This document shows, piece after piece, positions 23,726 through 48,870 of a stretch of 64,000 nt of DNA (the stretch's first letter is position 1; each line of letters opens with the position of its first letter). The notes beneath the pieces are model-generated. The model made no database searches and was not told where the DNA came from. It was given only the letters and a program-made list of their open reading frames with translations. The stretch is taken from positions 557,161 through 621,160 of the forward strand of contig LVVQ01000001.1 in assembly GCA_006954405.1 (NCBI GenBank). The letters run 5' to 3'. Position numbers and translations under genes: made by a program. The stretch is from Candidatus Methanarcanum hacksteinii (GTDB lineage Archaea; Thermoplasmatota; Thermoplasmata; Methanomassiliicoccales; Methanomethylophilaceae).

Positions 23726-23765
23726 ACACGTAGAAGCAAATTCATACTTTTTCCCTCAACTTTTT

Positions 23766-23813
23766 CCCTCATGGGGGGATGTCCTGCCCCCCTTGAGGTT
23801 TTTCACATATTCT
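23766..23813 (+). terminator. Hairpin plus T-tract after the corrinoid protein gene
   Basis: CCCTCATGGGGGG / CCCCCCTTGAGGG 12-bp stem followed by TTTTT. Confidence 0.5.
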
Positions 23814-23899
23814 TCATCATTCCCTTTCTTCATGGAACGTTATACGGTATGTTCTGTGGTACTGCTCACTATTATACGGTATGCGTCGATACGTAATCT

Positions 23900-26110: not shown

Positions 26111-26204
26111 GTCGCACGTTTCAAACAATTTCCGCTAAACACTTTTACCCCTCCCTTTCCTTTTTATAACTGTAATCATATCCTCCCGATAGAGGAGACT
26201 TATC

Positions 26205-27236
26205 ATGGCAATGACACCAAGAGAGAGAGTACTCGCAGCAATGAAACAGGAGAAGCTGGACAGACCCCCAGTCGCAGTCTTCACACAGTCAGCAACCATC
26301 GACCAGATGGATGCATTAAACATCTACTGGCCCGAAGCACACTCAGATGCAAAGATGATGTGCGAGCTCGGAGCAGCACAGGCAACCGTCTTCGGATTCG
26401 AAGCAGTCAGGTCCTCATTCTGTCTCACAGCAGAAGCAGAGGCACTCGGATGCAAAGTGGATCCTGGAAAGAAAGACAGGACACCTATGCTCAAAGCACA
26501 CCCCTTCAAATTCGACCCCATGTCCGGTGAATATGACGAGCCTAACCTCATGTCCCCTGAGGAGTTCCTCAAGACAGGAAGGCCCGCAGTCATTCTCGAG
26601 GCAACAAAACTCATGAAAGAGAAATACGGAAAGGACTACGCAGTCATCGCAGGTAACACTGGACCTTTCACACTCGCAGGTCACCTCGTTTCAACAGAGA
26701 ACCTCGTTTTCGGAATCATGATGGAGCCCGACAAGGTCAAAGAGTGGGTAGATGCAGTCAACCCCATCGTTAAAGCATACTGCCAGGCACTTTCAGACGC
26801 AGGAGCAGACATCATCCAGATGTCAGAGCCTTCAGCATCAACAGACCTTCTTTCACCCGACATGTTCACAGAGTATGCAGGATCATACGTCAAGGCATCA
26901 CTCGCAGCAACAAAGGGAGCAGACACAGTTCTTCACATCTGTGGAGACACAGCACCTATCCTCGACCACATGATCGAGACAGGCGTAACAGGTCTCTCAA
27001 TCGAGGAGAAAGTCGACTCCGCAGAGGCAGTCAAGATCGTCGGTGGACGTGCAGCACTCGTCGGAAACGTCGGTGTCGTCTCACCCTTGCTCCAGGGAAC
27101 ACCTGAGGACTGTGCAGCAGCAGGAAAGAGGATCGCAGAGGCAGGATTCAACGTAATCTCACCTGGATGCGGACTTTCAGCTCTTATCCCCGGTGCAAAC
27201 CTCAAAGCACTCGTCGACTCTGTCAAATCACTCTGA
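26205..27236 (+). CDS. Methylcobamide:CoM methyltransferase (URO-D family, MtaA/MtbA-like)
   Basis: 343 aa URO-D-like protein (MAMTPRERVLAAMKQEKLDRPPVAVF...) with conserved His and Cys near the C-terminus. Confidence 0.75.
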   Translation: MAMTPRERVLAAMKQEKLDRPPVAVFTQSATIDQMDALNIYWPEAHSDAKMMCELGAAQATVFGFEAVRSSFCLTAEAEALGCKVDPGKKDRTPMLKAHPFKFDPMSGEYDEPNLMSPEEFLKTGRPAVILEATKLMKEKYGKDYAVIAGNTGPFTLAGHLVSTENLVFGIMMEPDKVKEWVDAVNPIVKAYCQALSDAGADIIQMSEPSASTDLLSPDMFTEYAGSYVKASLAATKGADTVLHICGDTAPILDHMIETGVTGLSIEEKVDSAEAVKIVGGRAALVGNVGVVSPLLQGTPEDCAAAGKRIAEAGFNVISPGCGLSALIPGANLKALVDSVKSL

Positions 27237-27360
27237 TTGCAGAATCACAAACGAATTAATCAAGGGGGCATCAGCCCCCACTTCTACATATACTTCGATA
27301 CGTTTTCGTTGCAAGGCCATTTTATACTCAACATTCCAATGCACTGGAAGAGGATTTACT

Positions 27361-29001
27361 ATGGCATACGGAATAGCACTCGATCTCGGTACGAGCGGGT
27401 TCAGATCCCACCTTGTCGATCTTGACAAAGGTGCCAAGATTATTGATACGGCGATAACGGTCAGACACCCGCTTCCGGGTGCGAACATAATGGATCATAT
27501 GCACTTCTGGATGACTTCAGGAAGGGCGATCACGCATAACATCATCGCGCAGACGGTGTACGATCTCATAAGCCTCTATGGAAAGGAGAAACTCTCTGAG
27601 GTGAAGAAGATATCAGTCTGCGGTAATCCCATCCAGTTGTCATTGTTCGAGGACATCGAGATAAGGGATTTGGCATTCGCTGGTGAGAACAAGATCAAGA
27701 ACCTCGGTGTGACCCCTCCATTAAGGAAGGCACACATAACCACTGCTGGTGATATCGGGCTGTTAGGCATCAATCCCGAGGTGGAGGTGCTCATGCCCCC
27801 TGCGATAAGGCACGAGATCGGTGCTGATGCATTGGCCATGATAATAAAATCCGGTATGCTTGACAAGAAAGAGGTCTGCATGGTCACCGATTATGGTACG
27901 AATGCAGAGATGGGACTCTACCTGGACGGTGAATTGTATTCAGGTTCCGCTGCTGCCGGTCCAGCGATGGAAGGTCAATCCATTGAACAGGGTGTCCTCG
28001 CATCACCGCGTGCGATCTCGGATGTCAATATCGCAGATGACGGTACATGGGAGAACGTCGTACTTGACGATCATCTGATCCCTGTGACGACCGCTAAGGT
28101 GGATCCTGTGACCGGAAATACAGTCAGGATCCTGGACTACAAGGCGAAAGGGATCACAGGAACAGGTACCGTATCATGCATATCTGAAGGTCTCAGATCG
28201 GGCGTGATCACACTTCCCGGAATAAAGACCCCAGATAACAAGATCCATCTCGTGGACGGTGTAACGATATCCGCCAACGATGTACACGAAGCAGGGAAGG
28301 CCATGGGTGCAATCCGTGCAGGTCACAGGACTCTGATGTATGAGGTAGGTCTCTCCGATGCTGATGTGAAGACTATGTACATGGCTGGTGCTTCAGGAAC
28401 ATATGTTGATCCTGTAAAAGCACAGTATTGCGGAATGATACCTCGCGTATTGGATGAGGTGTATCAGCTCGGTAACACATCATTGATGATGGCTCACGAT
28501 CTGCTCAAATCCGATGGTGCTCTCGATATGATGCAGGATGTTGCGAATTCGATCTCTGCGAACCACATAATGTTCGCAGGGAATCAGAAGTTCGAAGACA
28601 TGTACGTCCTCGAGCTCGCATATTGGGATGAGGGTATGCCATACGACATGTACAACGAATTGATGGTAGCATCTGGATTCCCGCCGCTCCCTGAGATCGT
28701 ACATCCGAAGATATGCAAGAGGATCGTGAAATCGGACATACCTGAGGTCGGTGCAGGAATACACACTTTGGATCCTGTCGGTATGATCATGACAGGTATA
28801 TTCGACGGATGCACCGGATGCAGGAAATGTCAGCGCGGATGCCCTGAGAAGGCATTGACCGTGACCGATACGCCCGACGGAGCGCACATGATAAACGTAC
28901 GTTCCGACCTCTGTCTCGGTACCGCATGTAAGGCATGTGAATTCAATTGCCCAGAGAAGGTCTATTCTTTCACAGATCTCAAAGTGCAATACAAACTCTG
29001 A
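27361..29001 (+). CDS. ramA: Corrinoid reductive activation protein RamA (ASKHA domain plus C-terminal 2x[4Fe-4S] ferredoxin)
   Basis: MAYGIALDLGTSGFRSHLVDL N-terminus and C-terminal CTGCRKCQRGCP...CKACEFNCP. Start moved from the track's 27193 to the ATG after a TTTTATAC box. Confidence 0.8.
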   Translation: MAYGIALDLGTSGFRSHLVDLDKGAKIIDTAITVRHPLPGANIMDHMHFWMTSGRAITHNIIAQTVYDLISLYGKEKLSEVKKISVCGNPIQLSLFEDIEIRDLAFAGENKIKNLGVTPPLRKAHITTAGDIGLLGINPEVEVLMPPAIRHEIGADALAMIIKSGMLDKKEVCMVTDYGTNAEMGLYLDGELYSGSAAAGPAMEGQSIEQGVLASPRAISDVNIADDGTWENVVLDDHLIPVTTAKVDPVTGNTVRILDYKAKGITGTGTVSCISEGLRSGVITLPGIKTPDNKIHLVDGVTISANDVHEAGKAMGAIRAGHRTLMYEVGLSDADVKTMYMAGASGTYVDPVKAQYCGMIPRVLDEVYQLGNTSLMMAHDLLKSDGALDMMQDVANSISANHIMFAGNQKFEDMYVLELAYWDEGMPYDMYNELMVASGFPPLPEIVHPKICKRIVKSDIPEVGAGIHTLDPVGMIMTGIFDGCTGCRKCQRGCPEKALTVTDTPDGAHMINVRSDLCLGTACKACEFNCPEKVYSFTDLKVQYKL

Positions 29002-29072: not shown

Positions 29073-29771
29073 ATGTCGGACAACAGCGTATTCGCAGAGA
29101 AGTTCAAGACGATTCTCAAGCTCAGACACGAGCCTGTGGCTGTAAAATTGGTAAAGAAGGATGAGGAGTATCCAGCAGGTTATGACGCACCTTCCGAGCA
29201 GATGACTCACTGTCAAGCCGTGATGGGAGCGAAGAATGGAAATTCATACAAGATGCCTGCAGCTATGCAGTCATGCAACGTCGGTGCATCCACTTTGGGA
29301 ATGATCCCGAAGCCTGAGAAGGTCATCAGTGGCGAGTTCCATGCGAATATAGGTATACACGAGTCGCCTGATGCGGCCAAAGCGATGATCGCCGCTGCCG
29401 TTGACGTTCCCTTCGAGACACAGGGCGAGGTCGTATGCCCACTGAAGGATGCGAATTTCATACCTGATGTTGTAGTCTTCGTCGACATACCCGAGAGGAT
29501 CTATTGGTTCGAGGCATTCCTCACACGTAAGGTCGGAGGGCGCGTAACATACACCACAGCACCGTTCCAATGCGCATGTGAGGATGTCACTGCGATACCC
29601 ATCGTATCAGGCAAGCCGAACATCTCGATCGGTTGTTTCGGTTGCAGGAAGAGGACGGATATGAAGGCTGACGAGATGGCTATCGGTGTTCCCTACAGCT
29701 TGATCGCAGAGATGGTATCCGATCTCGACATCTACAAGGACGGCGTCTTCCTCAAAGCAAAGAGGGACTGA
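29073..29771 (+). CDS. DUF169-family protein
   Basis: 232 aa with conserved Cys pattern (HCQAV, CNVG, CFGC). Confidence 0.5.
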   Translation: MSDNSVFAEKFKTILKLRHEPVAVKLVKKDEEYPAGYDAPSEQMTHCQAVMGAKNGNSYKMPAAMQSCNVGASTLGMIPKPEKVISGEFHANIGIHESPDAAKAMIAAAVDVPFETQGEVVCPLKDANFIPDVVVFVDIPERIYWFEAFLTRKVGGRVTYTTAPFQCACEDVTAIPIVSGKPNISIGCFGCRKRTDMKADEMAIGVPYSLIAEMVSDLDIYKDGVFLKAKRD

Positions 29772-29889: not shown

Positions 29890-30369
29890 ATGGCAGAGCT
29901 GATCGACAGGAAAGATGTTGAGATCCTGAAACGGTTGAAGGTGGATTCTAGAACCCCTATGGGTAGCATAGGGAACAAATTGAACATATCCAAGGCAACC
30001 GTGAGCCGTCGTGTGGCAAGGATGGAGGATGAGAACATCATCCGCAAATATTCCATGGATGTGGACCTTACCAGTATGGGCATCATGAAATCATTGGTGA
30101 TGATACAGGTCGTAGGTACCCCCACGGCAGTGATCATAGATCAGCTCAGGGATTATGAGGAGATCGGTGGCATCTACAAGACATTCGGTGATCACAATAT
30201 CATATGTGAGATATACACGAAGAATGTGGATGAGATATACGAGATGATCCAATCCAAATTGTTGAAGATGCCAAGCGTCAGGAACGTGGAGGTAGATGTC
30301 CTCATAGGGGAGGAGACTCTCAATGAGAATGCAGACCTCAAACTCTATGAGAAAGGATTGAAGGAGTGA
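29890..30369 (+). CDS. Lrp/AsnC-family transcriptional regulator
   Basis: HTH (ISKATVSRRVARMEDENII) followed by a RAM domain. Confidence 0.8.
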   Translation: MAELIDRKDVEILKRLKVDSRTPMGSIGNKLNISKATVSRRVARMEDENIIRKYSMDVDLTSMGIMKSLVMIQVVGTPTAVIIDQLRDYEEIGGIYKTFGDHNIICEIYTKNVDEIYEMIQSKLLKMPSVRNVEVDVLIGEETLNENADLKLYEKGLKE

Positions 30370-30373
30370 CATC

Positions 30374-31597
30374 ATGGCTGGGATCATACTCAATCGTTGT
30401 CCGAAGGTGTCTGCAGATACAGGGATAAGGGTCGTTCCGCCAGAAGAGACGCTCAAGAGAGTGATCCCCCTCTTGGATAAGGCAGGGATGGAGCCGCTAG
30501 AGGATATCACCGATAAGGACAACATAGGCATTCCAGTCTATTCCGTGTACAGGAAGAAGACTGCGAAGGGAACGTTCGGTAATTACAATGGTAAAGGCGC
30601 CACACCCGAACAGGCGATGGCATCAGCCGCGATGGAAGCCATCGAAAGATACAGTGCTGAATTACATGATGACGATGAGATAGTACTTGGTACGATACAA
30701 CAGGTAAGGGACAACGGTCCGATGATAGAACCGGATGATCTGATCCTTCCTGCGCGTGTTATGTACAATCTCGAAGCGGCAGATATTGCATGGACAACAG
30801 GATATGACCTCATACAAGGCCAAGAGGTATGGGTCCCGGCATGTGCAGTGTACTATCCATACTATCCCGATGGGGATCTGCAATTGTTCAGATTCCACAC
30901 GAACGGCATAGCATCAGGGAATACCATCGAAGAAGCGATACTGCATGGTATGTTTGAAGTCATAGAGAGGGATGCATGGTCGATAGCGGAAGCATTCGAC
31001 AGGACGAATGCCGACATAGTGATAGATGATGAGGATTCCGTGCCTGGAAAACTCCTCAAACAGTTCAGAGATAATGGAGTGGAGATACACCTCAAGGATC
31101 TGACCAGTGATCTTGGCATACCTACGATCGGAGCATCATCCGATGATGTTTCCACGAAGGATCCCGAGCTTTTGAACATAGGCGTAGGGACACATCTCGA
31201 TCCTGTCATCGCTGCAACCAGAGCATTGACAGAGGTAGCACAGAGCAGGACCACTCACAAACATGGATTGAAGGTCAATGCGAATCTTGTCAAAGTGACC
31301 AAAGAGATGGGCTATGAGAGGATCAAGGCTGTGAACAGACTCTGGTATTCCGACAACGACAAGAAGATAAGATTGTCGGAGATGCAGAATCTCTCAACAC
31401 CCTATGTGAGGGATGATATCGAAGTGGTACTTGGAAGCCTGGTGGAGCATGGATTCGAACGTGCAGTGGTAGCGGACCTTACAAGAGATGATGTGAACAT
31501 ACCTACAGTAAGGATGATCATTCCCGGAATGGAGGTATCCACGATGGATTCGGAACGCGAAGGCCCAAGACTCTGGGGAAGATGGCCAAAACGGTGA
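30374..31597 (+). CDS. ycaO: YcaO-domain protein (candidate McrA thioamidation enzyme)
   Basis: EAIERYSA and EVIERDAWS YcaO ATP-binding motifs; immediately upstream of mcrB. Confidence 0.8.
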   Translation: MAGIILNRCPKVSADTGIRVVPPEETLKRVIPLLDKAGMEPLEDITDKDNIGIPVYSVYRKKTAKGTFGNYNGKGATPEQAMASAAMEAIERYSAELHDDDEIVLGTIQQVRDNGPMIEPDDLILPARVMYNLEAADIAWTTGYDLIQGQEVWVPACAVYYPYYPDGDLQLFRFHTNGIASGNTIEEAILHGMFEVIERDAWSIAEAFDRTNADIVIDDEDSVPGKLLKQFRDNGVEIHLKDLTSDLGIPTIGASSDDVSTKDPELLNIGVGTHLDPVIAATRALTEVAQSRTTHKHGLKVNANLVKVTKEMGYERIKAVNRLWYSDNDKKIRLSEMQNLSTPYVRDDIEVVLGSLVEHGFERAVVADLTRDDVNIPTVRMIIPGMEVSTMDSEREGPRLWGRWPKR

Positions 31598-31709
31598 AAG
31601 AACGAGTAATAGGTTCAATAAAAAACAACCATTAAATATCAAAAAGCAGGCGGTTTTTGTCGATTCAAACTTCATTTATAAATGGCCAAAAAATGGTCTT
31701 TTTTATCTT

Positions 31710-31726
31710 AACAATCGATAATTGTT
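31710..31726. promoter_or_regulatory. Perfect 17-nt palindrome AACAATCGATAATTGTT upstream of the mcr TATA box
   Basis: Self-complementary sequence centred about 26 nt upstream of the TATA box at 31741. Confidence 0.35.
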
Positions 31727-31740
31727 AGAAATGCTTTACT

Positions 31741-31748
31741 TTATATGC
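31741..31748 (+). promoter_or_regulatory. mcr operon TATA box (TTATATGC) with an A-rich BRE-like flank
   Basis: The position implies a transcript start near 31770 and a 5'UTR of about 60 nt ending in GGAGGT, 5 nt before the mcrB ATG. Confidence 0.45.
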
Positions 31749-31829
31749 TAAAATGGCATACGGAAGAACTACAAGGGGAGGCAAAAAGGTTAGCCCTTTT
31801 GCTGATTTATGAATAAACGGAGGTATGAA

Positions 31830-33164
31830 ATGCCAAAATACAATGACGTAATAGATCTGTATGACGACAGAGGAAAGCGTATCGCTAAACAGATTCCTCT
31901 GGAGGCAATCAGTCCGTTGCGCAACAATGCAATCAAGAGAATTGCAGCAATGACCGAGAGGACGATCGCAGTCAACCTCGCCGGAATCGAGAAAGCTCTC
32001 AAGACCGGTTCAATGGGTGGAGACGGTGCAATCATCAAGGGAAAAGAAATTGACATCCCCCTCGTGAAGAATGCAGACAAGATTGCAAAAGCAGTAAAAG
32101 AAATGGTCCAGGTAGAAGAGGGCGACGATACAATCGTCAACGTGAAAGCTGACGGAAAGAGTCTCGTCGTTGTCGTACCTGAGGCAAGGATGCGCGCAGG
32201 AATCGAGTACACAACTGGATTCACATGTGTCGCAGCAGCAACAGTACAGGCAATCATCGACGAATTCAAGATCCCGATGTACAAGGCAAACATGGTCAAG
32301 GGAGCAGTATGGGGAAGATACCCCCAGACAATGACCTTCACCGGTTCAAACGTAAAGTCAATCCTTGAGGTTCCTCAGAACAACGAAGGTGCAGGTTACG
32401 CACTCAGGAACATCATGGCAAACCACGTCGTTGCACTTGTAGGCAGGAACGCAATGCAGGGTGTTGCACTTTCAGCAATCTTCGAGCAGACAGCATCATT
32501 TGAGATGGGTGACGCAATCGGTCCGTTCGAGAGAGGACACCTCCTCGCACTCGCATATGAGGGACTTAACGCAAACAACATGCTCTACTCAATCGTCAAG
32601 AAGAACGGAAAGACCGGAACAGTCGGTACCGTTATCGAGACACTCATGGAGAGGGCAATCGAAGACGGAGTCATCAAGGTGAAAGAAACACTCCCCAGCG
32701 GATACAAGGTCTACACAACCGATGATCTCATGCTCTGGAACGCATACGCAGCAGTCGGTCAGGTCGCAGCAGTCATGGTCAACGTTGGAGCAGCAAGGGC
32801 AGCACAGGGTGTTCCCTCAACAATCCTCTACTACAACGATCTCCTTGAGCACGAGACAGGCCTGCCTTCAACAGACTACGGACGTTCAATGGGAGTTTGT
32901 GTTGGAATGTCATTCTTCTCACACTCGATCTACGGTGGAGGAGGACCTGGACTGTTCCACGGAAACCACGTTGTTACAAAGCACTCTAAGGGAGTTCTGA
33001 TCCCCGCTGTCACAGCAGGTAACTGTCTTGATGGTGGAACACAGACCTTCTCAGCAGAGGCAACATCAGGATTGTTCAAAGAAGTCTTCGGAGACGTTCC
33101 TGAGTTCAAGACACCGATGCAGATTGTCGCCGCGGAGGCAAAGAAAGTCGCAAAGAAGCTGTGA
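31830..33164 (+). CDS. mcrB: Methyl-coenzyme M reductase beta subunit
   Basis: [17 protein letters not shown]-terminus; about 444 aa. Confidence 0.9.
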
Positions 33165-33170
33165 TGTAAA

Positions 33171-33602
33171 ATGTCAGAGAGTACCAATAATTCAGACCCC
33201 AATTATGCCGGAGTACCTCTTCCTGAGGTATGGATTCAAAGTCAGCGTCTGCTTGGAGCAGATAGTACAGAGAAAGTGTTGAAAGCATTGGAGGGTGTGG
33301 AGAAGATCAGGCAGATCAACCTCAAGGGCGAAAGTCTCCCCGCCACCATCAACAGTGGCCCTAACAAAGGCTTGCCCAACAATCACACCGAACGCAGGAT
33401 GATCAATTTCTGCGGAAAGGATGTTGAACTCAAACATCTGGTAGGTGATTTCTACATTGAGCTTTCCGTCAACAATGAGGATGAGCTGAATGAGAAAGTG
33501 AAGGAGATCGAGGAAGCTGTCAAGGACACTATGCCTTTCGGTTACAGTGTTCAGGTCGGAAGGTACTCCAAGTACAGAGCATCAATGCACGATTATAGAT
33601 AA
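33171..33602 (+). CDS. mcrD: Methyl-coenzyme M reductase operon protein D
   Basis: 143 aa in the canonical position between mcrB and mcrG. Confidence 0.8.
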
Positions 33603-33613
33603 GGTGTTTAATT

Positions 33614-34387
33614 ATGGCATATAAGAGACAATTCTACCCTGGTGAGTCCATTCCTGCAAAGAACAGGAGAAGATACATGGACCCCAAACAGAACCTTAAG
33701 AAACTGAGAGACATCGCAATGGATGATGTCGTCAGGATCATGGGACACAGGAACCCTGGAGAGGAATACAAGTCGATCCACCCCCCGATCGAGGAGGGAA
33801 AGGAGCCCGACTGTCCTATCAGGGCACTCGTTAAACCGATCGAGGGAGCAAAGCACGGAGACCGTGTAAGGTACATCCAGTTCACGGATTCAGTCTACTT
33901 CGCACCCATCTCGCCCTACCAGAGGGCATGGATGTACCTCTCCAGGTACAGAGGTATCGATACAGGTACACTGTCCGGAAGGCAGATCATTGAGATGCGT
34001 GAGAGGGATCTCGAGAAGATCGCAAAAGAAATGATCGACAACGAGACATTCGACCCTGCACTCACTGGAATCAGGGGTGCAACAGTTCACGGACACGCAT
34101 GCCGTCTCGATGAGCACGGACTCATGTTCGATGCATGGCAGAGGTATGTCTGGGACGACAAGAAGAAAGAAGTCGTATACGTCAAGGATCAGGTTGCACT
34201 TCCCCTTGACAGGAGAATCTCCGTTGGAAAGCCCGCAAAGATGGATGACCTCAAGAAGAGGACAACAATCTTCAGAGCAGACGGTGTAGACATGAGAGAC
34301 GACAAAGAGGTTACCATGTACGGTCTCAGGATCCACAAACTGAGGACACTCGGTGGTTACCAGCCCTACAAAGTTAAGGGGATCTGA
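33614..34387 (+). CDS. mcrG: Methyl-coenzyme M reductase gamma subunit
   Basis: [12 protein letters not shown]...RRRYMDP N-terminus; 257 aa. Confidence 0.9.
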
Positions 34388-34392
34388 TTAAG

Positions 34393-36051
34393 ATGGCAGC
34401 AAAAGAAAGGTTGTTTATTGACGCCTGTAAGAAGAAATTCAAAGAGGACCCAACCAGCATCGAGACAAAGTTCTACTGCTACGGCGGATGGAAACAGTCA
34501 AAGAGAAAGGTCGAGTTCGTAGAAGCAGCAAACAAGATCGCAAAGCAGCGTGGCATACCCATGATGAACCAGGACATCGGAGTTCCGCTCGGACAGAGGT
34601 CCTGGATGCCCTACCAGCTCTCACACACAGATATCTTCGTAGAGCCGGATGATCTTCACTGCATCAACAATGCTGCAATTCAGCAGGCATGGGACGACAT
34701 CAGGAGGACAGTCCTCGTTGGTCTCGACTCACCCCACAACACAATCGAGAGAAGGCTTGGAAAAGAAGTCACACCTGAGACAATCAACGAGTACCTCGAG
34801 GCAGTTAACCACACAATGCCCGGAGGAGCTGTTGTTCAGGAACACATGGCTGAGATCAACCCTGCACTCGCATACGACTCATACGTCAAGGTCTTCACCG
34901 GAAACGACGAGCTCGCAGACGAGATCGACAAGAGGTTCCTCATCGATATCAACAAGCAGTTCTCAAAGGACCACGCAAAACAGCTCAAAGCAGCAATTGG
35001 AAACACACTCATGCAGGCAGTCCGTGTCCCGACAATCGTCGGACGTGTCATGGATGGAGGTACAATCTCGAGGCACGCAGCTATGCAGATCTCGATGGCT
35101 TTCATCACATCATACAAACTCGCAGCAGGAGAGGCAGCAATTGCCGACTTCGCATACTCTGCAAAACACCAGTGTATCAACATGGGTACCATGATGCCCG
35201 CAAGGCGTGCAAGAGGACCCAACGAGCCTGGAGGAATTCCCTTCGGATTCATGGCAGATATCGCACAGTCAGACCGTGTACACCCGGACGACCCCGGACG
35301 TGCAGCTCTTGAAGCAGTCGCACTTGGTGCAATCGTCTTCGACCAGATCTACCTCGGTGGATACATGTCTGGTGGAGTAGGATTCACACAGTACGCATCA
35401 GCAGCATACACTGACAACATCCTTGAGGATTACACATACTATGCAATCGACTACATCAAGGACAAGTTCGGTGGCTTCGGAAAACTCAACCCCGAAGACT
35501 TCGACAAGCTGATCCAGCTCGGAGATGACATCAACTCATACGCACTCGAGTCCTACGAGAAGTACCCCGCAATCATGGAGGCACACTTCGGTGGATCACA
35601 GAGGGCAACAGTTGCAGCAGCAGCAACCGGTATCGCAGGTTCAATGGCTACCGGTGTCGCAGACTGCGGTCTCAACCTCTGGTACCTCTCAATGCTCCAG
35701 CACAAGGAGAGGACAGGAAGGCTCGGATTCTACGGATACGACCTTCAGGATCAGTGTGGTTCAGCCAACTCATTCGCATACAGGTCCGATGAGGGTCTGC
35801 CCATGGAATTGAGGGGTCCGAACTACCCCAACTACGCAATGAACGTCGGTCACCTCTCTGGATACACAGGTATCCCGAAGGCAGCTCACGCAGCACGCGG
35901 AGACGCATTCACAGCCAACCCATTCATCCGTATCGCATTCGCAGACCCGAGCCTTGTGTTCGACTTCGCGAACGTCACAAAAGAGATCGGACGTGGCGGA
36001 CTTCGTGAATTCAAGCCTGCAGGTGAGAGGACCGCAATCATTAAGGCATAA
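34393..36051 (+). CDS. mcrA: Methyl-coenzyme M reductase alpha subunit
   Basis: 552 aa. Contains the [12 protein letters not shown] region (the thioglycine and didehydroaspartate site) and a Gly-rich C-terminal region. Confidence 0.9.
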
Positions 36052-36062
36052 GCGTGAAACAC

Positions 36063-36341
36063 ATGCAACTGGGTGAGATCTACAAATACATGCCAACATC
36101 GACTGTTGGGAAAGTGGTGGATATTCGTGAGAAGGACGGTAAGACTTGGGCTTTGCTCGATTTCACTGGCCTTTGGTACGATGTTTCAAAGCTCACTCCT
36201 GCGGATGTAAGTGAATATAAGGAGATCTCGTTCAAATACAGAGAGAGGTCCTTCGATTCCAGCGTTAGGTCCGTTGAGGAACTGGCGAAGGAGATTCAGG
36301 ACGTCGACATATCTGACTTTACACCCAGTGGCGGCGGATGA
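36063..36341 (+). CDS. Small hypothetical protein immediately after mcrA (92 aa)
   Basis: ATG 12 nt after the mcrA stop. The track start at 36054 is GTG. Confidence 0.4.
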   Translation: MQLGEIYKYMPTSTVGKVVDIREKDGKTWALLDFTGLWYDVSKLTPADVSEYKEISFKYRERSFDSSVRSVEELAKEIQDVDISDFTPSGGG

Positions 36342-36360
36342 ACGCTTAACCAAACCAAAC

Positions 36361-36420
36361 CTTTTACACTTTTTACCTTTTTTTTACTTTTGTAAAAACG
36401 AACGTGTTTTTCAACATTCT
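36361..36420 (+). terminator. Oligo-T rich region (probable mcr operon terminator)
   Basis: CTTTTACACTTTTTACCTTTTTTTTACTTTTG: repeated T5-T8 runs typical of archaeal termination. Confidence 0.45.
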
Positions 36421-36506
36421 ATGTTTTACCACCCACACTTATTTTTACAATGAACTGTTTATTACGAAGTCGTCGCAATATGCGATAAAATAAGGGGAGG
36501 GATTTG

Positions 36507-36743
36507 ATGGCAAAGACATCGTTCAATCTCAAGGATCCGGCGACTTTCGTTGGTTTCATCTTGGGACTTCTTGCAACAGCGCTCTTCAACGTGTTGGGAT
36601 TGATTATCCTTATCGTTGTTGTGCTGTTCTATTATTTCACCAACAAGAAGAACGTTGTGCCCGCATTGATCGGTGCACTCGTCGGTATTGTTATCGGCAT
36701 CGTGATCAACATCATAGTCGGTGGCGTTATCGCGTTATTCTGA
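36507..36743 (+). CDS. Small membrane protein (2 TM)
   Basis: Two hydrophobic helices; a GGGAGGG ribosome-binding site at 36494. Confidence 0.4.
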   Translation: MAKTSFNLKDPATFVGFILGLLATALFNVLGLIILIVVVLFYYFTNKKNVVPALIGALVGIVIGIVINIIVGGVIALF

Positions 36744-36796: not shown

Positions 36797-37057
36797 ATGA
36801 CAGCAATCGATCGAGATGATGATATGTTTAGAAGGAAGAGTAAAGTGAACGTGAGGAGGAAATCTCCAGTGAAATCTATCAGAGATTTCGAGAAAGATCT
36901 TCTTAGGAATAACAAAGGTGGCGGAAAGGTCACCAATTGTCATATAGATAGGGATGAATTCACTATCACGATCGATATCGATGATGCTAAATTCGAGATG
37001 ACTTATGGGCAGGCAGCTCTGATCCTCGTGGCGTTAAAAGGCATCTACAATAAATGA
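36797..37057 (+). CDS. Hypothetical small basic protein (86 aa)
   Basis: ORF only. Confidence 0.3.
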   Translation: MTAIDRDDDMFRRKSKVNVRRKSPVKSIRDFEKDLLRNNKGGGKVTNCHIDRDEFTITIDIDDAKFEMTYGQAALILVALKGIYNK

Positions 37058-38234: not shown

Positions 38235-39128
38235 CTAAAATACCTTATCCTCGGAAAGTTTCGTTACGATAGGCCCTTTGGACGTCAGTATCTCCTTTAT
38301 GTCGACGACACCGATGGCTGCGATCGCTTTCCCATCGAGATCGATCGGAGTGACGACGACTTTGATACCTTTATATGGTCCACTTGTAGCGATCTTCCTT
38401 ATGCACGTTTTTGTGCGGATGACATCCTCTAGGACCTCTCCGGTGTATGCATTGTCGATGACGACCCCATTCTCGATTCTCACACCAAGGTCATCCCTGC
38501 TCTTCGCACAGACGGGAAGTCCACCTACCAATTCGTGTATCGCGAACGCGAGTGACAATATCTCTCCGGTGGATGATCTCGATGATAGGATGTCCTTGAT
38601 GCCTTTCTGTAATCTTAGGCCGCCCATCGTATTTAATGCGGCCGATATCGCACCGCATTCCGCGAGTTCGTAGGAATCTGCCGTACCGATGATCACCGCA
38701 TCATCGTTCCTTACCGCGAATATGTCTCTGATGATCTTCTCGGTATCCTTGTCCACGGGGTAATCTGAACCAGGGAAGATGAGGCGGTTGTTGGAACATA
38801 TCAATGTCGTAGCACCCTTCGCACCCGATATGATTGCCGAATCCCTCTCCTCACAACCGAATGAGATCCTTCTGGAGGCATGTCTGATCAGTACGGCACA
38901 GTTGTACATGCCGATGGTGAGGTCATGTAGGACGATCGGTTTCGCATCCAGGAATATCAATCCTCTGTATTCATCCCCTTCCTTTGTCAGTGTGATCCCA
39001 CTCTTTCCGATCTCTATGTATTTGTTCTCGAGGAGGATATTCAGGATCGTCCTTGTGCTGCCTTCTCCGATGCCAAGTACCGATGATAGTTTCTTCCTTC
39101 CGATCGGTTCATCGACATCCATGGACAT
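38235..39128 (-). CDS. Putative regulator: N-terminal winged-helix domain plus C-terminal uncharacterised domains
   Basis: GRKKLSSVLGIGEGSTRTILNILLENKYIEIGKSGITLTKEG resembles a wHTH. The track start at 39260 is TTG; the first plausible ATGs are at 39128 and 39122. Confidence 0.4.
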   Translation of the reverse strand: MSMDVDEPIGRKKLSSVLGIGEGSTRTILNILLENKYIEIGKSGITLTKEGDEYRGLIFLDAKPIVLHDLTIGMYNCAVLIRHASRRISFGCEERDSAIISGAKGATTLICSNNRLIFPGSDYPVDKDTEKIIRDIFAVRNDDAVIIGTADSYELAECGAISAALNTMGGLRLQKGIKDILSSRSSTGEILSLAFAIHELVGGLPVCAKSRDDLGVRIENGVVIDNAYTGEVLEDVIRTKTCIRKIATSGPYKGIKVVVTPIDLDGKAIAAIGVVDIKEILTSKGPIVTKLSEDKVF

Positions 39129-39329
39129 GATCGATTTCCATATGTGATAATCATTGAATTTCGGGGCAGGCCCACAGATCCTGACGTTGGATGATGGATG
39201 CATCATACATCCAGTGTTCTGTTCGGATATAACAATTCTGGTGTTGTCAGTCGTAGCCAATATTAACGCGACTAATCTTTACACACGATAAAGGCACGCT
39301 TTATCTATTTAAAAGTGATAACGCTGTTT

Positions 39330-40949
39330 ATGTCAAATGAATCTGTCGAACTTTTAAAATTAGAGAATGTCTCGAAAGTTTATGACGGAAGGACTGTGCT
39401 CAACAATGTCAGTGCTACTTTGTCAAGCGGTAAGATCCTCGGTCTTATCGGAAAGAGCGCAGCCGGAAAAAGTGTTCTGATCCATATGATCAGAGGTTCT
39501 GATGATTACGCACCCACTTCAGGCAGGGTGCTCTATCATGTCAACATATGCCCCAAGTGTGGAAACCTTGACCTTCCGTATTCAGGTCACGTATGTACGA
39601 AATGCGGTGCTGAACCGAAGACAGAATGGGTGGACTACTGGGCACTCCCCGAACGCGATCCTGTCAGACAGGAGCTCAAACAACGTATCTCCATCATGTT
39701 GCAGAGGACGTTCGCTCTCTTCGGAGACAGTACGGTGATGGAGAATATATTCGAAGCCATCGGAGATAAGGTCTCTGAGAAGGAGAAGATCGAGAAGACC
39801 ATCGAGCTCTTGGAATTCGTCAACATGACTCACAGGATAACGCACATCGCGCGTGACCTTTCAGGAGGAGAGAAACAGCGTGTCGTCATGGCAAGACAGC
39901 TTGCGAAGAACCCGTTGATATTCCTCGCTGACGAACCAACAGGTACTCTCGATCCGTATACCGCCAACATCGTTCACGAGAGGTTGGTTAAATATGTGCG
40001 CGAGAACAACATCTGTATGGTATTCGCATCACATTGGCCGGAGGCCATCAACAAGATGGCGGATGAGGCGATATGGCTCGACTCAGGTAACGTCGTCATG
40101 AGTGGCGATCCTAAGACCGTCACATCCAAATTCATGGAGGAATACCACTTCGAGAGAAGGAAGGATACCAAGCTCGGAGAGCCTCTCATCGTTCTCGAGA
40201 ACGTGAAGAAACATTACTTCTCCGTCGTGAGAGGTGTCGTGAAGGCTGTGGATGGAGTATCATTCACCATAAGGGAGAATGAGATATTCGCGATGGTCGG
40301 TATCTCTGGTGCAGGTAAGACCACGACATCCCGTATGATCGCAGGTATGACTCCAGTAACATCTGGTGTCGTCAAGATCAAGATCGGTGACGATTGGGTG
40401 GATATGAGCGAATCAGGATTCATGGGCAAGGGAAGGGCGACACCATACATCGGTGTCCTCCACCAGGAATACACATTGTATCCGTTCGATACCATCCTCA
40501 AGAACCTCACAGTCTGCATAGGGATGACGATGCCTGCCGAGATCGCCAAAGTGAAGGCGATACAGGTCCTTCAGAGCGTAGGATTCCCAAGGAAGGATAT
40601 CGAGAAGGTCCTGTACTCATACCCCGATGCATTGTCTGTCGGTGAGCAACAGAGGGTCGCATTCGCACAGGTCCTCATCAAAGAACCCCGTATCGTCATC
40701 TTGGATGAACCTACGGGAACGATGGATCCGATAACAAAGGTCACTGTCGCCAAAGCCGTGTTGAATGCGAGGGACAACCTCGGTGAAACGTTCGTCGTCG
40801 TCAGTCACGACATGGATTTCATCCTCAATTGTTGCGACCGTGCCGTTCTCTTCAAGAACGGAAAGGTCATCGAGGAAGGAAAGCCGGAAGAGATCGTCAA
40901 CGGTTTCGACAAGATAGAAAAAGAATTGGAAAATGGTGAACAACAGTGA
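39330..40949 (+). CDS. atwA: Methyl-coenzyme M reductase system component A2 (tandem ABC ATPase)
   Basis: Two Walker A sites ([16 protein letters not shown]), two LSGGE/LSVGE signatures and a CPKCG...CTKCG zinc ribbon insert in domain 1. Confidence 0.85.
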
Positions 40950-41569
40950 AACAGAAGATTGGAAGGCATCTCAGTTTCGTTGAGTGCCGTGAATCCATGG
41001 GGATGGGTCAGGGCGGAGGCTTGGCGCAGAGAGCGACCATCTCGGAAAGCGGCAGGGATGTTGTCGCCATCGCCATGGGCCCTGGAAGAAGACACATCAC
41101 GAAACCTGTGTGCGAGATCACGTACGCACTCAGGGAAGAAGGTATCGACACGTCGGTCTTGGTCCTTAACGCGGGTGCAGGTGTGCCTGCGGATGCAGAG
41201 GATGTTTCCCATGGACAGTGTATGGGATTGGATCCGATCGAAGTGGAGAGGATACAACAATTCAAAGTGGCATTGATACACCTCGGGAATGTCCGCAGCC
41301 ACATAATATGGAAAGCGAGACTCATCCTCAGGAATGTCGACATCCCTGCGATAGTGGTATGTCAATGTCCTGTGGATTTCGAGGATTTCGCCGCCATCGG
41401 TGTGAAGACGAAGGATGTCATGCCACCCGATGATAAGGTGAACACCAAAGGGACCATAATAGAGATTGTCAACGGAGTCATAAGAGGGATCTCATGCCCT
41501 CAGGATAAGTTGGATGAGATCGTTTCGAAGGTACAGAGCATGCTCCCTAAACAGGAGGAGTCGAGATGA
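40946..41569 (+). CDS. mcrC: Methyl-coenzyme M reductase protein C
   Basis: [18 protein letters not shown]...[15 protein letters not shown] matches the McrC consensus. The GTG start overlaps the atwA stop (GTGA). Confidence 0.85.
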
Positions 41570-43083
41570 AGGTATTCGTCAACGGCAAGGAGAAGGAGTT
41601 GCCATCGAAAGCAACACTCAAATCGGCATTGACCGGCGAGCATTACGTTAAGGGTACGCTTGTATCGATCCACCTCTCGACCGAGAAGTTGGTCAAGGAA
41701 TCCGATGATTTCGAGATCGTCACAGAGAGGGGTAGCATGGTGATCCATCTTGACGATACTCCGGATGCGAAGATCTGGAGATCGAAGGTAAGTTATATGT
41801 CCGAACTCTTCCTGAGATGGAGGACAGAGAGGCTCGATGCCTTCGGTTCATTCTCTACAGATATAGAGTTCGATCAGACGGAAGGGATCTACAAGCGTTT
41901 CGATTGTTTCTTCTCATTGGGAGGGAATGATAATTCCACGACATACATGATGATCGCGAGGAAGGACCATAAGAGATCATATGGTGCTGGTAGCGGTCGC
42001 ATAGGACACATCACGAAAGGGAGGCACATCCTGGACATATTCCAAGAGGGAGACAGGATCATAGAGGTCAAGCCTTTGATATCCGAAGAGAGTACGGAGA
42101 ACGTCATAGTCACGACCGATCTCTCATTCAAGCTCGAGGACGGATATTCCGTCGACACGCACGTGAGGATAAAGCTCGACGAATCATCACCGGAGAGTGC
42201 GGAGCATGTATTGATCCTGTCGGACAAAGGTCATATGCACATATCGGACACATCTGGAAGCTATGCGGCCTGTAGTGAGGATCAGGATATCTCGATGGAG
42301 ATCGAGGACAGAAGGGTGAGGGACATAGGTTCGGTCACCGTGAGGAATCAGGGTGTCGGATTAGGAAGGATATTCATCTACAAGGAGAAGAGGCAGTTAT
42401 CAGAGGTGCACAATTACGCAGGTACCGTGATAAGCGGTATGCCCATAGTCAAGATGGCCAAGGGCGATAGCAGCATCAGTGTTGTGACAGAACCTCTTCG
42501 TTTGTTGACTGTCGGTATGACGCAGAAGAAAGCATCGGAATTCCTCGATTCCAGAGGCGTGAAGCAGGAAAGGGTAGGTGACGTCGATGATGATGCGATT
42601 GTTGTCGAACAGATACCTGAAAGGACTATCGATGCATTGAAGGCTGGAAAGGTCAAGACATTCGCTGTGAAAAAGGACAGGATCTACAGGATATCCTTGG
42701 ACAGGAAGAAATCTCCATTGAGCGTCCATTATTTCGAGAAGGTCACAGGCTTGAGTCATAAGCCCATAGGTTCGTTGAAGGTGTTCTTCATGTTCGATGG
42801 GATGCCCATGGTGCAGTTCGAAGGCGATCCGAGCAGAGCGCATATGCTCTATCCCGATGAACCGTTCAAGAAGTGTAAACGCGGAGACATCGGTGTAACG
42901 AATCAGGCAAGACCCAATGCAGGCCTAATAGGCATAAGGTTGGAGGACAGCAAGGAGTACGGACCTACCGGTGAGGAGGGATATGGTACGAACATCCTCG
43001 GAAAATTCGAGGATGACCTTGATGAATTCTTAAAGAAGACTGATGATGAGGAGGTCATCTATGTCACGGAGGAGAGATTATGA
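41566..43083 (+). CDS. mmp3: Methanogenesis marker protein 3
   Basis: 505 aa. The ATGA overlap with mcrC, the size and the position match the mmp3 slot of the Mcr activation cluster. Confidence 0.55.
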
Positions 43084-43502
43084 GTGAAGAGAGAGAAACA
43101 AGACTTCTCATGATATCGCCCACATCCAATATAACACCGGATCAGCTCTCGCGTACGATCCACTCCATGGGCGAGAGGATCACAGTGAAGGAGACCTGCT
43201 ACGGATGTCTCATCGAAGGGCCTAGTGAGGTCGTGAGGCGTGTACGTGATAGGGCTAGAGAGATGGATCGTAACGCCATATTCTCGAAGATCAGAGCATA
43301 TCCCGCGAGCGACCCAAGAAGATGCCGTGCACAGCATGGTACCAGGCCTGGTTATTCCCAATTGGAGATGGAATGGAAGGCCCTTACCAACATAGAGGCT
43401 GGACTCGATGCATTGGATAGAGGAGAGGAGATCAAGGAACCCACTCCTAAGAAACAACTTTCAGTAATGGAATTTAAGAAAATATGTGAGGCGAACCAAT
43501 GA
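43080..43502 (+). CDS. mmp6: Methanogenesis marker protein 6 (probable)
   Basis: 140 aa with translationally coupled overlaps on both sides. Assigned by size and synteny only. Confidence 0.4.
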   Translation: MSEERETRLLMISPTSNITPDQLSRTIHSMGERITVKETCYGCLIEGPSEVVRRVRDRAREMDRNAIFSKIRAYPASDPRRCRAQHGTRPGYSQLEMEWKALTNIEAGLDALDRGEEIKEPTPKKQLSVMEFKKICEANQ

Positions 43503-43951
43503 AGGTGTTCATCGACCCCCCAAACAGTATGATTTTATTCGATTTGATAGAGAGGTTCGGACATGAGCCCCTCAGTACAATGGCAGCACTCCAAGAGAGG
43601 GTGGACAATATAGAGATAGATATGCCTCCGATGAATGTGACATTGGATGACGTCATCAAAGGACTCAAATATGCAGGTATAGAGGTACCGTCAGGTATCA
43701 GAGGAAGACTTGCGATATGGGGCCCCCTAATCGAGGAAGCGGATGCCGCTGTCGTCATGGAAGGGGCACCGTTCGCCTTCGGATGTGTCGGCTGTGAACG
43801 TTCCAACCTCATGGTCAAGTATCTGTTGCAGAGGCGCGGGATACCCGTGGTCACTGTCAATTATCCCGAGAATGAGGAAGAAGGTAAACTCGTGGTTGCC
43901 AAGATAAAGGAATTCTTGGACAAGCTCAATGATAAGAGGGAGGTGGATTGA
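43499..43951 (+). CDS. mmp5: Methanogenesis marker protein 5 (probable)
   Basis: 150 aa; [10 protein letters not shown] motif; coupled overlaps. Assigned by size and synteny only. Confidence 0.4.
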
Positions 43952-45180
43952 TGTCCGAGTTGATCAAGATTGCACAGTTGTCATGCGGAACCGAATACAG
44001 CAGTGTCCAGTATGAGATAGAGAAGGCCGCACGCAGTGTCGGTGCCAAGATAGTATATCCTGACGTATCCGCTGCAGATGTGGATGATGCGGTGCAGAGA
44101 TTCGGTTTCAACCCAAGGTCTCCGCAGCTCAAATTGATGATTGCACGTGCCGTCCAATTGGCTGATGGACTCTACGATGCTGATGCAGTGTTCATCGCAA
44201 CATGCTTCAGATGTGCCGAGGCCGCACTCGTGAGGAATGAACTCAGAAGATTCATCCAAGAGAACACAAGACTCCCTGTGGTCACATACTCGTTCACAGA
44301 GAGGCTCAAGGCATCGCAGCTCCTCACAAGGATGGAGGCATTGGTCACCATAGTGGCAAGGAAGGAACTCCTTGCCAGAGAGAAGCAATCCGGATTGACC
44401 GCAGGATTGGATTCGGGTTCATCCACGACCAAGGCTGTCATCATGAGGGATAACAAGATCATAGGGAAGGCATGGATGCCCACAGGTAATGTGGTGGAAT
44501 CCGCCACATCTGTCCTTGAGGATGCACTGAAACAAGCTGGCGTGAAATTATCTGATATTGAGGCGATAGGCACGACAGGATACGGACGTTTCACTCTCGG
44601 TAAACATTTCAACGCCAAATTGGTCCAAGAGGAATTGACGGTCAACTCCAAAGGAGCCGTATGGTTGGCTGACAGACAGAGGGGAGAGGCGACCATCATC
44701 GATATAGGCGGGATGGATAACAAAGCGATAACCGTCCGTGATGGTGTCCCTGATAACTTCACCATGGGTGGTGTCTGTGCAGGTGCATCCGGTCGTTTCA
44801 TGGAGATGACCGCCAGAAGGCTCAAGATCGATGTAGCTGACCTTGGAAAATATGCAGTGAAAGGGGACTGGAGGAATGCCAAGATGAACTCATACTGTTC
44901 AGTCTTCGGTATACAGGACCTTGTCACGACACTCGGTGAAGGGAAATCATTCGAGGATGTCGCGGCCGCAGCATGTCATTCAGTGGCCGAACAGGTCTAT
45001 GAGCAACAGCTTCAGGAGGTCGATGTGAGGCATCCGATCATCCAGGTCGGAGGTACATCGCTCAATGCCGGACTTGTCAAAGCCGTCGGCGAGGTCCTTG
45101 GAGAGGCACCTATCGTGCCTCCGAACTCACAGTACATCGGAGCCGTCGGAGGAGCACTTCTGAGTTCAGGATTCCTGTGA
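43951..45180 (+). CDS. mmp15: Methanogenesis marker protein 15 (BadF/BadG/BcrA/BcrD-type ATPase)
   Basis: C-terminal ASKHA ATPase ([28 protein letters not shown]). The ATG overlaps the preceding stop (TGATG). Confidence 0.65.
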
Positions 45181-45189
45181 GGTGTCCAT

Positions 45190-45750
45190 ATGCTTATCGA
45201 TGTGACCGGTACGGAAGAATATGCATGCGAAGCATACAAGAAGCTCTTCGAGGACATCATGAACGATGTCGGCAAGGCAACGATGATAGATCGTGCTAAG
45301 TTGGTGCTCAAACCAGAGGTCCCTCTGTTCATATTCAGCGTCAGATTGATCAATGAGCCGACGAACAAAGTCGTTTCCGATGCCGCGGATCTGAGGCAGG
45401 AAGGATCCGACACACACGTCTCCATCTCCGATGAGAGATATGCTCCCGAGATCATAGCATCACTCTGGAAGAATTATGGCAGGGATAAGGTCGAACAACA
45501 GACGAGATTCGATCTCACCGTATACGGCGGGGATGAGAAGGCCATATCGAATTACCAGATATCATCTGGAGAGGAAGCAAAGAAAGAGATCATCGGTGCA
45601 CTCTGGAGGGTCATGCCTGAGGGCATCAAGAACAGACACAACATGTCCGATGGCAACGTGATAACGATAGTCGCCACGGAGGAGCTGATGCATCCAGAGA
45701 TGATAGATGAGGGTGTGAGCGTGCACAAGTCGATGAAGGAGGTTGCCTGA
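45190..45750 (+). CDS. mmp17: Methanogenesis marker protein 17 (probable)
   Basis: 186 aa; assigned by size and position. Confidence 0.45.
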   Translation: MLIDVTGTEEYACEAYKKLFEDIMNDVGKATMIDRAKLVLKPEVPLFIFSVRLINEPTNKVVSDAADLRQEGSDTHVSISDERYAPEIIASLWKNYGRDKVEQQTRFDLTVYGGDEKAISNYQISSGEEAKKEIIGALWRVMPEGIKNRHNMSDGNVITIVATEELMHPEMIDEGVSVHKSMKEVA

Positions 45751-46682
45751 TGTTCGAGGTCATGATGTATGATGGAGGCATCTATCGTTCGGATGAGTTG
45801 TTCGAAGCGATAGAGGATGTTGGCGGTGTCGTATTGCAGAGGACGAGGAGCGCACAGCTTCTCACTGTCACCATGTCCATCCCAGGTGAGGACAAGGAGA
45901 TGCTGTCGGAGAAATGCAGGGAGATCGGAGGCGAAGTGAAGAATGTTCCCCTTGCAGGTACAGAGATCGCAGTGGTCGGATGTACGTTAGGAAGACACCA
46001 CATGCCGCACCCGATATGCGACATAGCCGAGGAGATCAGACAATACGGGGGCATATCCGTTGTCATGGGCCTTGCAAGAGGCAGGGGTAAGAGCACCTCC
46101 CAGATATCAGCCAAAGAGAAGGGTATAATCGAGGAATACGATGCAGCGGTGTTCATGCTTGGTAATTTCAAACAATGCATCGAATCCAAGAAGGCATTGT
46201 TCGATGACATCGATATCCCTGTGATCCTAGTATGCGGTCCACAGCCTGACGGTCTCGATGAGGATTGTGAGGCTATCGTGTCCGGTGTCGGCCGTAAGGC
46301 AGAGAGGATGAGGACCACGGATGAGAGGAAGAAACTTACTGAGATCGCCGACGTCGTTGATCAAGTCATCAGGAAAAGAAGGGCGATGTTCGAGGAGGAT
46401 CCTCTGTTCGTCCATCCTGCTGAATTGAAACAGTTGTTGGAGACATATGAGCCGATAGACATGAGTCTCAGACCTGCACCCATCGTCCTTCACCTGGACG
46501 GCCTTAGGGTCAAGATACCATATAGCGAACACAAGGATTATTTCGATAATCTGACCGTCTATGGTAGGAAACTGACGGACATAGCTAGGATCTCAGAGTC
46601 CAAGATCGATGACAGTAGTACGATCATAAGGATAAAGACGAAGTCAGAGGTCGATGACGAGGATCGCAGGAAGGGCATATGA
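45750..46682 (+). CDS. mmp7: Methanogenesis marker protein 7 (probable)
   Basis: 310 aa; TGATG coupling with the upstream gene; last gene of the cluster. Confidence 0.5.
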   Translation: MFEVMMYDGGIYRSDELFEAIEDVGGVVLQRTRSAQLLTVTMSIPGEDKEMLSEKCREIGGEVKNVPLAGTEIAVVGCTLGRHHMPHPICDIAEEIRQYGGISVVMGLARGRGKSTSQISAKEKGIIEEYDAAVFMLGNFKQCIESKKALFDDIDIPVILVCGPQPDGLDEDCEAIVSGVGRKAERMRTTDERKKLTEIADVVDQVIRKRRAMFEEDPLFVHPAELKQLLETYEPIDMSLRPAPIVLHLDGLRVKIPYSEHKDYFDNLTVYGRKLTDIARISESKIDDSSTIIRIKTKSEVDDEDRRKGI

Positions 46683-48827: not shown

Positions 48828-48870
48828 GAGGGAGTTCAACTCCCTCTTCCAATCTTTATCTGATTTTAAA
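48828..48870. terminator. Bidirectional hairpin terminator between convergent genes
   Basis: GAGGGAG TTCAA CTCCCTC perfect 7-bp stem with T-rich flanks. Confidence 0.5.

Follow-up and report, generated by a model that had tools for sequence, protein, structure and literature searches.

The window analysed here, a stretch of 64,000 nucleotides of contig LVVQ01000001.1 (assembly GCA_006954405.1, forward-strand positions 557,161 to 621,160) of Candidatus Methanarcanum hacksteinii, a member of the Methanomethylophilaceae within the order Methanomassiliicoccales, carries a ycaO gene directly ahead of the operon encoding methyl-coenzyme M reductase (MCR). MCR is behind nearly all biological methane, and the Methanomethylophilaceae contribute to enteric methane. 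The six genes lrp, ycaO, mcrB, mcrD, mcrG and mcrA are all located on the forward strand (Table 1, positions of the window), and mcrB, mcrD, mcrG and mcrA are all present and complete according to Pfam and NCBIfam. An initial annotation made from the sequence alone had described a standalone YcaO gene ending 232 nt before mcrB with an Lrp regulator immediately upstream, and both descriptions are accurate: exactly 232 nt separate the last base of the ycaO stop codon (31597) from the ATG of mcrB (31830), and the end of lrp is 4 nt away from ycaO. The open reading frame (ORF) of mcrB opens at 31809, but 31830 was taken as the true start because the gene is called there on contigs encoding the identical protein and a GGAGGT motif is found just before this ATG. 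The Lrp protein matched no NCBIfam equivalog; lrp and ycaO are probably co-transcribed. According to the profile scores the gene identifications reflect strong homology and not chance.

The tfuA gene immediately downstream of ycaO is typical of about 90% of methanogens, and TfuA normally frees sulfide from a ThiS-type thiocarboxylate. As seeds for a TfuA search we used the genes located directly downstream of ycaO in other methanogens, four of which were confirmed by Pfam (PF07812, E~1e-45), and the resulting hidden Markov model (HMM) found matches in 57 of the fetched loci. Against all window ORFs of at least 50 aa the HMM gave no match at E<=10, and a broader TfuA profile, applied with filters off to the 1788 six-frame stop-to-stop segments of at least 20 aa of the window, reached a best value of only E=1.2 (5 bits). 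PF07812 was likewise absent from the Pfam annotation of the called genes over approximately 1-61 kb of the window. Hence, the earlier statement that the window holds no TfuA stands, and in view of the six-frame result the idea of a tfuA remnant or pseudogene was rejected as well.

In order to place the locus in context, the GTDB species representatives were scanned with a YcaO alignment, which yielded 80 loci. Seventeen loci, the window included, belong to the clade of the window (clade A, Methanomethylophilaceae), with YcaO and McrA identities to the window of 58-93% and 84-99%, respectively. The corresponding values for the Methanomassiliicoccaceae-type sister clade (clade B) are 43-51% and 72-77%. 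The gene order DUF169-lrp-ycaO-mcrBDGA-DUF2098 without tfuA was found in seven clade-A loci (the window, L009, L013, L015, L020, L021 and L026), whereas DUF169-lrp-ycaO-tfuA-mcrBDGA-DUF2098 was found in ten clade-B loci and in nine more clade-B-like contigs reached via TfuA homologs. In clade B tfuA is always present, overlaps the ycaO stop codon and lies ahead of the mcr promoter region. No TfuA was detected within ~6 kb of ycaO in any of the 17 clade-A loci, including those in which ycaO is located away from mcr; thus, the absence of tfuA at the ycaO-mcr locus is clade-wide.

Between the ycaO stop and the mcrB start lie 209-278 nt in clade A. The same interval measures 834-982 nt in clade B; ~620-690 nt of it belong to tfuA, and the spacer between tfuA and mcrB is 218-313 nt long. 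The simplest history suggested by these sequences would be one deletion of the tfuA ORF alone at the base of clade A. The ycaO gene adjoins the mcr operon in 7/17 clade-A loci and has later moved away from mcr in other clade-A genomes. The adjacency of lrp and ycaO is kept in both clades and is absent in other methanogen orders among the loci compared, and ycaO is linked to mcr throughout the order Methanomassiliicoccales, whether tfuA is present or not.

The nearest species-representative locus is L009 (contig CAVJRF010000014.1), which contains the full lrp-ycaO-mcrBDGA cluster and shares 93% (YcaO) and 99% (McrA) identity with the window. It was deposited as "Eggerthellaceae bacterium", evidently an archaeal contig mis-binned into a bacterial metagenome-assembled genome (MAG). 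Outside the order, the Methanobacterium/Methanobacteriaceae-type loci L041, L051, L054, L059 and L069 have no tfuA within ~6 kb of ycaO, and L068 carries tfuA 2 kb downstream. These Methanobacterium-type loci are an exception to the published single overlapping ycaO-tfuA locus whenever both genes are present.

The 232-nt spacer of the window contains oligo-T runs at 31654-31658 and 31699-31704, each followed by a TTTATA box (31675 and 31740), in addition to the GGAGGT motif ahead of the mcrB ATG. Based on these motifs, which may act as terminators and promoters, lrp-ycaO and mcrBDGA-DUF2098 probably form separate transcripts with the mcr promoter located in the spacer.

The YcaO protein of the window scored 419.7 bits (cutoff 365) against TIGR03266, the methan_mark_1 equivalog model "YcaO-related McrA-glycine thioamidation protein", matching profile positions 2-375 of 376. 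Its match to PF02624 spans positions 1-325 of 325 and thus a complete YcaO ATP-binding (kinase) domain. The model of the SagD-type azoline-forming cyclodehydratase (TIGR03604) gave 178.8 bits, below its cutoff of 219.25, and that of the ribosomal S12 accessory factor YcaO (NF040716) gave 28.3 bits, far below its cutoff of 700. Neither an E1-like/ocin-ThiF partner nor a precursor peptide gene was found beside ycaO, the neighbours being lrp and mcrB. The closest solved structure in the PDB is that of Methanocaldococcus jannaschii MJ1094 (E=1.7e-70), the YcaO of Methanopyrus kandleri ranks next, and close homologs are annotated as [quoted passage not shown]. By sequence the protein is therefore of the Mcr-associated (methanogenesis marker 1) thioamidation type and neither azoline-forming nor ribosomal. 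Its assignment in the initial annotation to the family that installs the thioglycine in McrA is supported by the equivalog score, and the grouping with azoline-forming or ribosomal YcaOs, which was considered there as grounds for abandoning this assignment, did not occur, both scores lying below their cutoffs.

The gene also appears to encode an intact enzyme. Across 81 YcaOs, 71 alignment columns are at least 97% conserved, including E88, E91, E195, E198 and R199, and all of them are intact in the window protein. Compared with its ortholog in L009 (93% identity), ycaO has a ratio of nonsynonymous to synonymous substitution rates (dN/dS) of 0.023 and is thus under strong purifying selection. 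The predicted thioglycine site of McrA is Gly448 (codon 35734-35736), which is situated 4.1 kb downstream of ycaO inside a conserved 12-residue target motif; this motif is conserved in the McrAs of clades A and B.

In a neighbour-joining tree based on Kimura distances the clade-A YcaOs are monophyletic with a long stem. Mean YcaO identities amount to 48% between clades A and B, 52% between clade B and other TfuA-using methanogens and 44% between clade A and the latter, and long-branch attraction may account for the basal position of clade A. At five positions clade A carries substitutions (A43E, A253G, Q295H, R300K and D302N) for residues that are invariant in 65 TfuA-associated YcaOs. A common sequence signature of TfuA-independent YcaOs was considered and rejected since the TfuA-independent MJ1094 keeps the TfuA-type residues at all five positions, and the TfuA-less YcaOs known so far are not monophyletic in any case. 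The initial annotation had suggested a TfuA-independent YcaO as in some thermophilic methanogens. The first part of this suggestion agrees with the missing tfuA at the position it occupies in the sister clade, but the likeness to the thermophiles does not extend to the protein: the clade-A YcaO is 39% identical to MJ1094 and 31% identical to the M. kandleri enzyme and branches with neither. The tree topology thus points to a loss of tfuA in clade A that was independent of M. jannaschii and M. kandleri rather than to common ancestry.

Taken together, we presume that the tfuA ORF was lost in the ancestor of clade A and that YcaO thioamidates Gly448 of McrA without TfuA, and we assign a probability of roughly 65% to this reading. 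The absence of tfuA from the whole genome, as far as it can be deduced from the sequences covered, is considered quite likely. The deletion of the tfuA ORF alone would have left ycaO ~210-280 nt upstream of mcrB. YcaO would then O-phosphorylate the Tyr447-Gly448 backbone amide with ATP, and sulfide would attack directly and displace the phosphate, with no hydrolysis of a ThiS-type thiocarboxylate by TfuA, so that Gly448 would be converted to thioglycine by the ATP-dependent YcaO. This sequence of events follows, by homology, the chemistry described for YcaO thioamidation, namely ATP-dependent backbone O-phosphorylation and subsequent sulfur attack (PMC5589413; PMC7581889), which in vitro requires ATP and an external sulfide source (PMC7581889). 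TfuA is not obligatory, as M. kandleri and M. jannaschii lack tfuA yet contain thioglycine (PMC5589413), and the direct use of sulfide would parallel the in vitro behaviour of their YcaOs. The McrA of clade A presumably contains the thioglycine as well.

By analogy, the sulfur source may be free sulfide, with which the apparent gut habitat would fit. A YcaO identical to that of the window is found on many metagenome contigs and in MAG GCA_964306625.1, and the names of the metagenome records (e.g. "GAIO21") suggest an animal gut as the host habitat. A sulfide-rich gut would make the TfuA/ThiS delivery dispensable, and YcaOs from high-sulfide habitats tend to be without the ThiS/TfuA delivery route (PMC13063428).

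Several points weigh against the proposed loss of tfuA and its consequences. The TfuA search covered ~64 kb of the window genome and the clade-A loci, so that a relocation of the gene is conceivable, and the database search for TfuA comprised the best 120 matches, among which a divergent clade-A TfuA could rank too low to appear. The five Methanobacterium/Methanobacteriaceae-type loci named above are also without an adjacent tfuA, so non-adjacency alone is no proof of absence. L015 and L020 of clade A originate from sediment/brine MAGs, and the gut-sulfide rationale may not explain the original loss. Furthermore, no MCR of any Methanomassiliicoccales is contained in the PDB, and no mass-spectrometry data were found.

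The most serious alternative, raised already in the initial annotation but regarded here as unlikely, is that tfuA was relocated elsewhere in the chromosome and still serves YcaO via the ThiS-thiocarboxylate route. The visible ~64 kb of the genome leave room for such a gene, and a separation of ycaO and tfuA does occur in methanogens, as illustrated by the 2-kb distance in L068 and by L041, L051, L054, L059 and L069. However, the best 120 relatives of clade-B TfuA among 5.8 billion proteins are all most similar to clade-B TfuAs, and none of them is named Methanomethylophilaceae, unlike the YcaO matches. All nine divergent TfuAs that were looked up are situated in ycaO-tfuA-mcrB loci; six of these loci, compared with the window, have a clade-B-type McrA, and of the other three, L096 has flanking genes that are cut off. 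The clean removal of a single ORF is also the simpler event, and according to Nayak et al. 2017 (PMC5589413) genomes with both ycaO and tfuA carry them as one locus.

It seems even less probable that a non-homologous partner replaces TfuA, for instance a HAD-family hydrolase or another sulfur-transfer protein. In one clade-A subclade (L010, L011, L012, L014 and L034) ycaO is directly followed by a gene encoding a HAD hydrolase of ~222 aa, with adjacent stop and start codons in L011, and the window encodes HAD paralogs of 30-37% identity at 48866-49531 (-) and 51845-52528 (-), 17-20 kb away. The five fixed changes in the clade-A YcaO could likewise be read as the mark of a new partner, but as MJ1094 keeps the TfuA-type residues they are no general signature, and the HAD adjacency is confined to the one subclade and not present at the window locus. 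The usual substrates of HAD enzymes are phosphate esters, and no member of the family is known to take part in sulfur delivery, both of which speak against such a partner. The HAD hydrolases of this subclade are 57-81% identical to one another.

The idea that thioglycine is not made in clade A and that YcaO was kept for another substrate or a chaperone-like role in MCR assembly draws on the fact that the Methanomassiliicoccales are already without mmp10 (bioRxiv 10.1101/211441) and mcmA (PMC7058361) and that neither an MCR structure nor mass-spectrometry data were found for the order, but it is highly improbable in view of the match to the thioamidation equivalog model TIGR03266, the intact family-conserved residues and strong purifying selection, the position of ycaO beside the mcr operon in 7/17 clade-A loci and the finding of thioglycine in all MCRs that had been examined by 2017 (PMC5589413).

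The small DUF2098 protein encoded behind mcrA was considered as a ubiquitin-like ThiS/MoaD sulfur carrier that could replace the TfuA route. The gene begins 3 nt past the mcrA stop in both clades (window, L009, L013, L021, L024-L030 and L089-L095), the C-terminus PSGGG is invariant in the clade of the window, and a terminal GG is found in 113 of 120 database homologs. This candidate was rejected since in the AlphaFold2 (AF2) model the protein is a small barrel of the Tudor/SH3-like type whose tail is disordered, and not a beta-grasp fold. The idea is also contradicted by the fold match of the model to 8s7v_L of the M. maripaludis MCR activation complex (E=3e-4, TMt 0.87), by the ends PSGT or PSGAG in part of the sister-clade proteins and by the binding of the DUF2098 subunit by a McrC loop in the published structure of that complex. 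Together with the profile match to PDB 8s7x_L/8s7v_L, the model identifies DUF2098 as a homolog of a small subunit of the MCR activation complex. The ORFs 36211-36453, 36504-36743 and 36797-37057 were rejected as sulfur carriers as well, as they have no family matches and no GG termini and one resembles a membrane peptide.

Compared with the characterised ycaO-tfuA system of Methanosarcina acetivorans (McrA Gly465; PMC5589413), the window locus is alike in the YcaO family (TIGR03266), in the McrA target motif (10-residue context) and in the expected chemistry. In M. acetivorans, however, tfuA overlaps the ycaO stop and the locus lies away from mcr, whereas the window has no tfuA, ycaO lies 232 nt before mcrB and lrp is found ahead of it. 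The Methanomassiliicoccaceae cluster (L023-L030 except the clade-A locus L026, L035, L037, L048 and L089-L098) has the same gene order with mcrC likewise outside the operon, but keeps tfuA between ycaO and mcrB. MJ1094 (PDB 6PE3/6PEU) and the YcaO of M. kandleri (PDB 6CI7/6CIB) are standalone McrA-type YcaOs like that of the window; their hosts are hyperthermophiles in which the absence of tfuA is documented genome-wide, in contrast to an organism known from metagenomes pointing to the animal gut, with the absence observed at the loci.

The physical linkage of the modifying enzyme to its substrate operon, which the initial annotation had singled out, is real but not special to this genome, being order-wide and already noted as ycaO(-tfuA) beside the MCR operon of Methanomassiliicoccus (Nayak et al. 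2017, PMC5589413). As TfuA-less methanogens (M. kandleri, Methanocaldococcus) have also been published, the locus does not represent a new kind of system. No text reporting the absence of tfuA from the Methanomethylophilaceae was found; the supplements of Nayak et al. 2017 omit these taxa, though its Fig. 2 may show the absence. Possibly new is that, in mesophilic host-associated methanogens, a whole family shows a clean deletion of just the size of the tfuA ORF while its sister family keeps the gene.

We lean, if only by a little, towards the wider view that the whole Methanomethylophilaceae, among them major methyl-reducing methanogens of gut and rumen, lack tfuA genome-wide and form thioglycine by YcaO alone. 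TfuA-free thioamidation would then have arisen independently once more, for the first time in mesophiles, with the long stem and the changes A43E, A253G, Q295H, R300K and D302N as adaptations to the loss. The sulfur route to thioglycine without TfuA has been studied only in two hyperthermophiles, and a mesophilic host-associated clade without tfuA next to a tfuA-keeping sister clade offers a clean comparative system for the question of sulfur delivery. If the loss is genome-wide, the two families, whose synteny is otherwise identical, would be a matched pair for mapping the dependence of YcaO on TfuA, one more lineage would be added to the few methanogens known without tfuA, and a reduced set of MCR modifications (no mmp10, mcmA or tfuA) would be compatible with active methanogenesis.

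Table 1. Genes and features around ycaO and mcrBDGA in the window, and HAD hydrolase genes following ycaO in other clade-A loci.
Feature	Position	Strand	Remarks
DUF169 (COG2043) gene	29073..29771	+	PF02596, E=5.8e-56; precedes lrp-ycaO in both Methanomassiliicoccales clades
Lrp/AsnC-family transcription regulator	29890..30369	+	Pfam HTH_24, HTH_AsnC-type and AsnC_trans_reg domains
ycaO, McrA-glycine thioamidation protein (methanogenesis marker 1), 407 aa	30374..31597	+	PF02624, E=1e-89
ycaO-mcrB spacer, 232 nt	31598..31829		Site of tfuA in sister clade
mcrB	31830..33164	+	Pfam MCR_beta_N E=1e-78, MCR_beta E=1e-132
mcrD	33171..33602	+	PF02505; TIGR03260 106 bits (cutoff 100)
mcrG	33614..34387	+	PF02240, E=9e-130
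mcrA	34393..36051	+	Pfam MCR_alpha_N and MCR_alpha; TIGR03256 911.8 bits (cutoff 767.75)
DUF2098 gene	36054..36341	+	PF09871; start 3 nt past mcrA
atwA (A2)-mcrC-mmp3-mmp6-mmp5-mmp15-mmp17-mmp7, MCR activation cluster	39315..46682	+	NCBIfam matches
HAD hydrolase after ycaO, L010	7232-7957		ycaO not beside mcr
HAD hydrolase after ycaO, L011	3124-3792		ycaO not beside mcr
HAD hydrolase after ycaO, L012	1612-2280		ycaO not beside mcr
HAD hydrolase after ycaO, L014	2432-3051		ycaO not beside mcr
HAD hydrolase after ycaO, L034	806-1540		ycaO not beside mcr

The mcrC gene is located outside the mcrBDGA operon at 40946-41569, 5 kb downstream and inside the activation cluster. The genes of this cluster from atwA to mmp7 are tightly packed and co-directional and begin 3 kb downstream of the mcr operon. 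TIGR03269, TIGR03264, TIGR03268, TIGR03272, TIGR03271, TIGR03286 and TIGR03291 scored above their cutoffs there, and mmp7 (TIGR03274) reached 307 bits, under its cutoff of 349. Thus, ycaO, MCR, DUF2098 and all proteins of the published MCR activation complex are encoded within 17 kb. Divergent from atwA-mcrC-mmp, a gene at 38235-39260 (-) encodes a 341-aa protein with a CggR_N/PH0730-like HTH, DUF4443 and DUF2111, which matched no NCBIfam family; it may regulate the activation cluster.

Directly upstream of DUF169-lrp-ycaO, the region 23087-29001 (+) encodes a corrinoid (B12-binding) protein, a 736-aa hydantoinase_A-like protein, a URO-D/MtaA-like methyltransferase and a RACo-type corrinoid activase, so that methyl-transfer genes abut the MCR cluster. 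The corrinoid protein, MtaA/URO-D-like methyltransferase and RACo genes are in keeping with a methyl-reducing member of the Methanomassiliicoccales. A second ORF of 736 aa at 58100-60310 encodes an H+-pyrophosphatase, which is unrelated to the hydantoinase_A-like protein despite the equal length.

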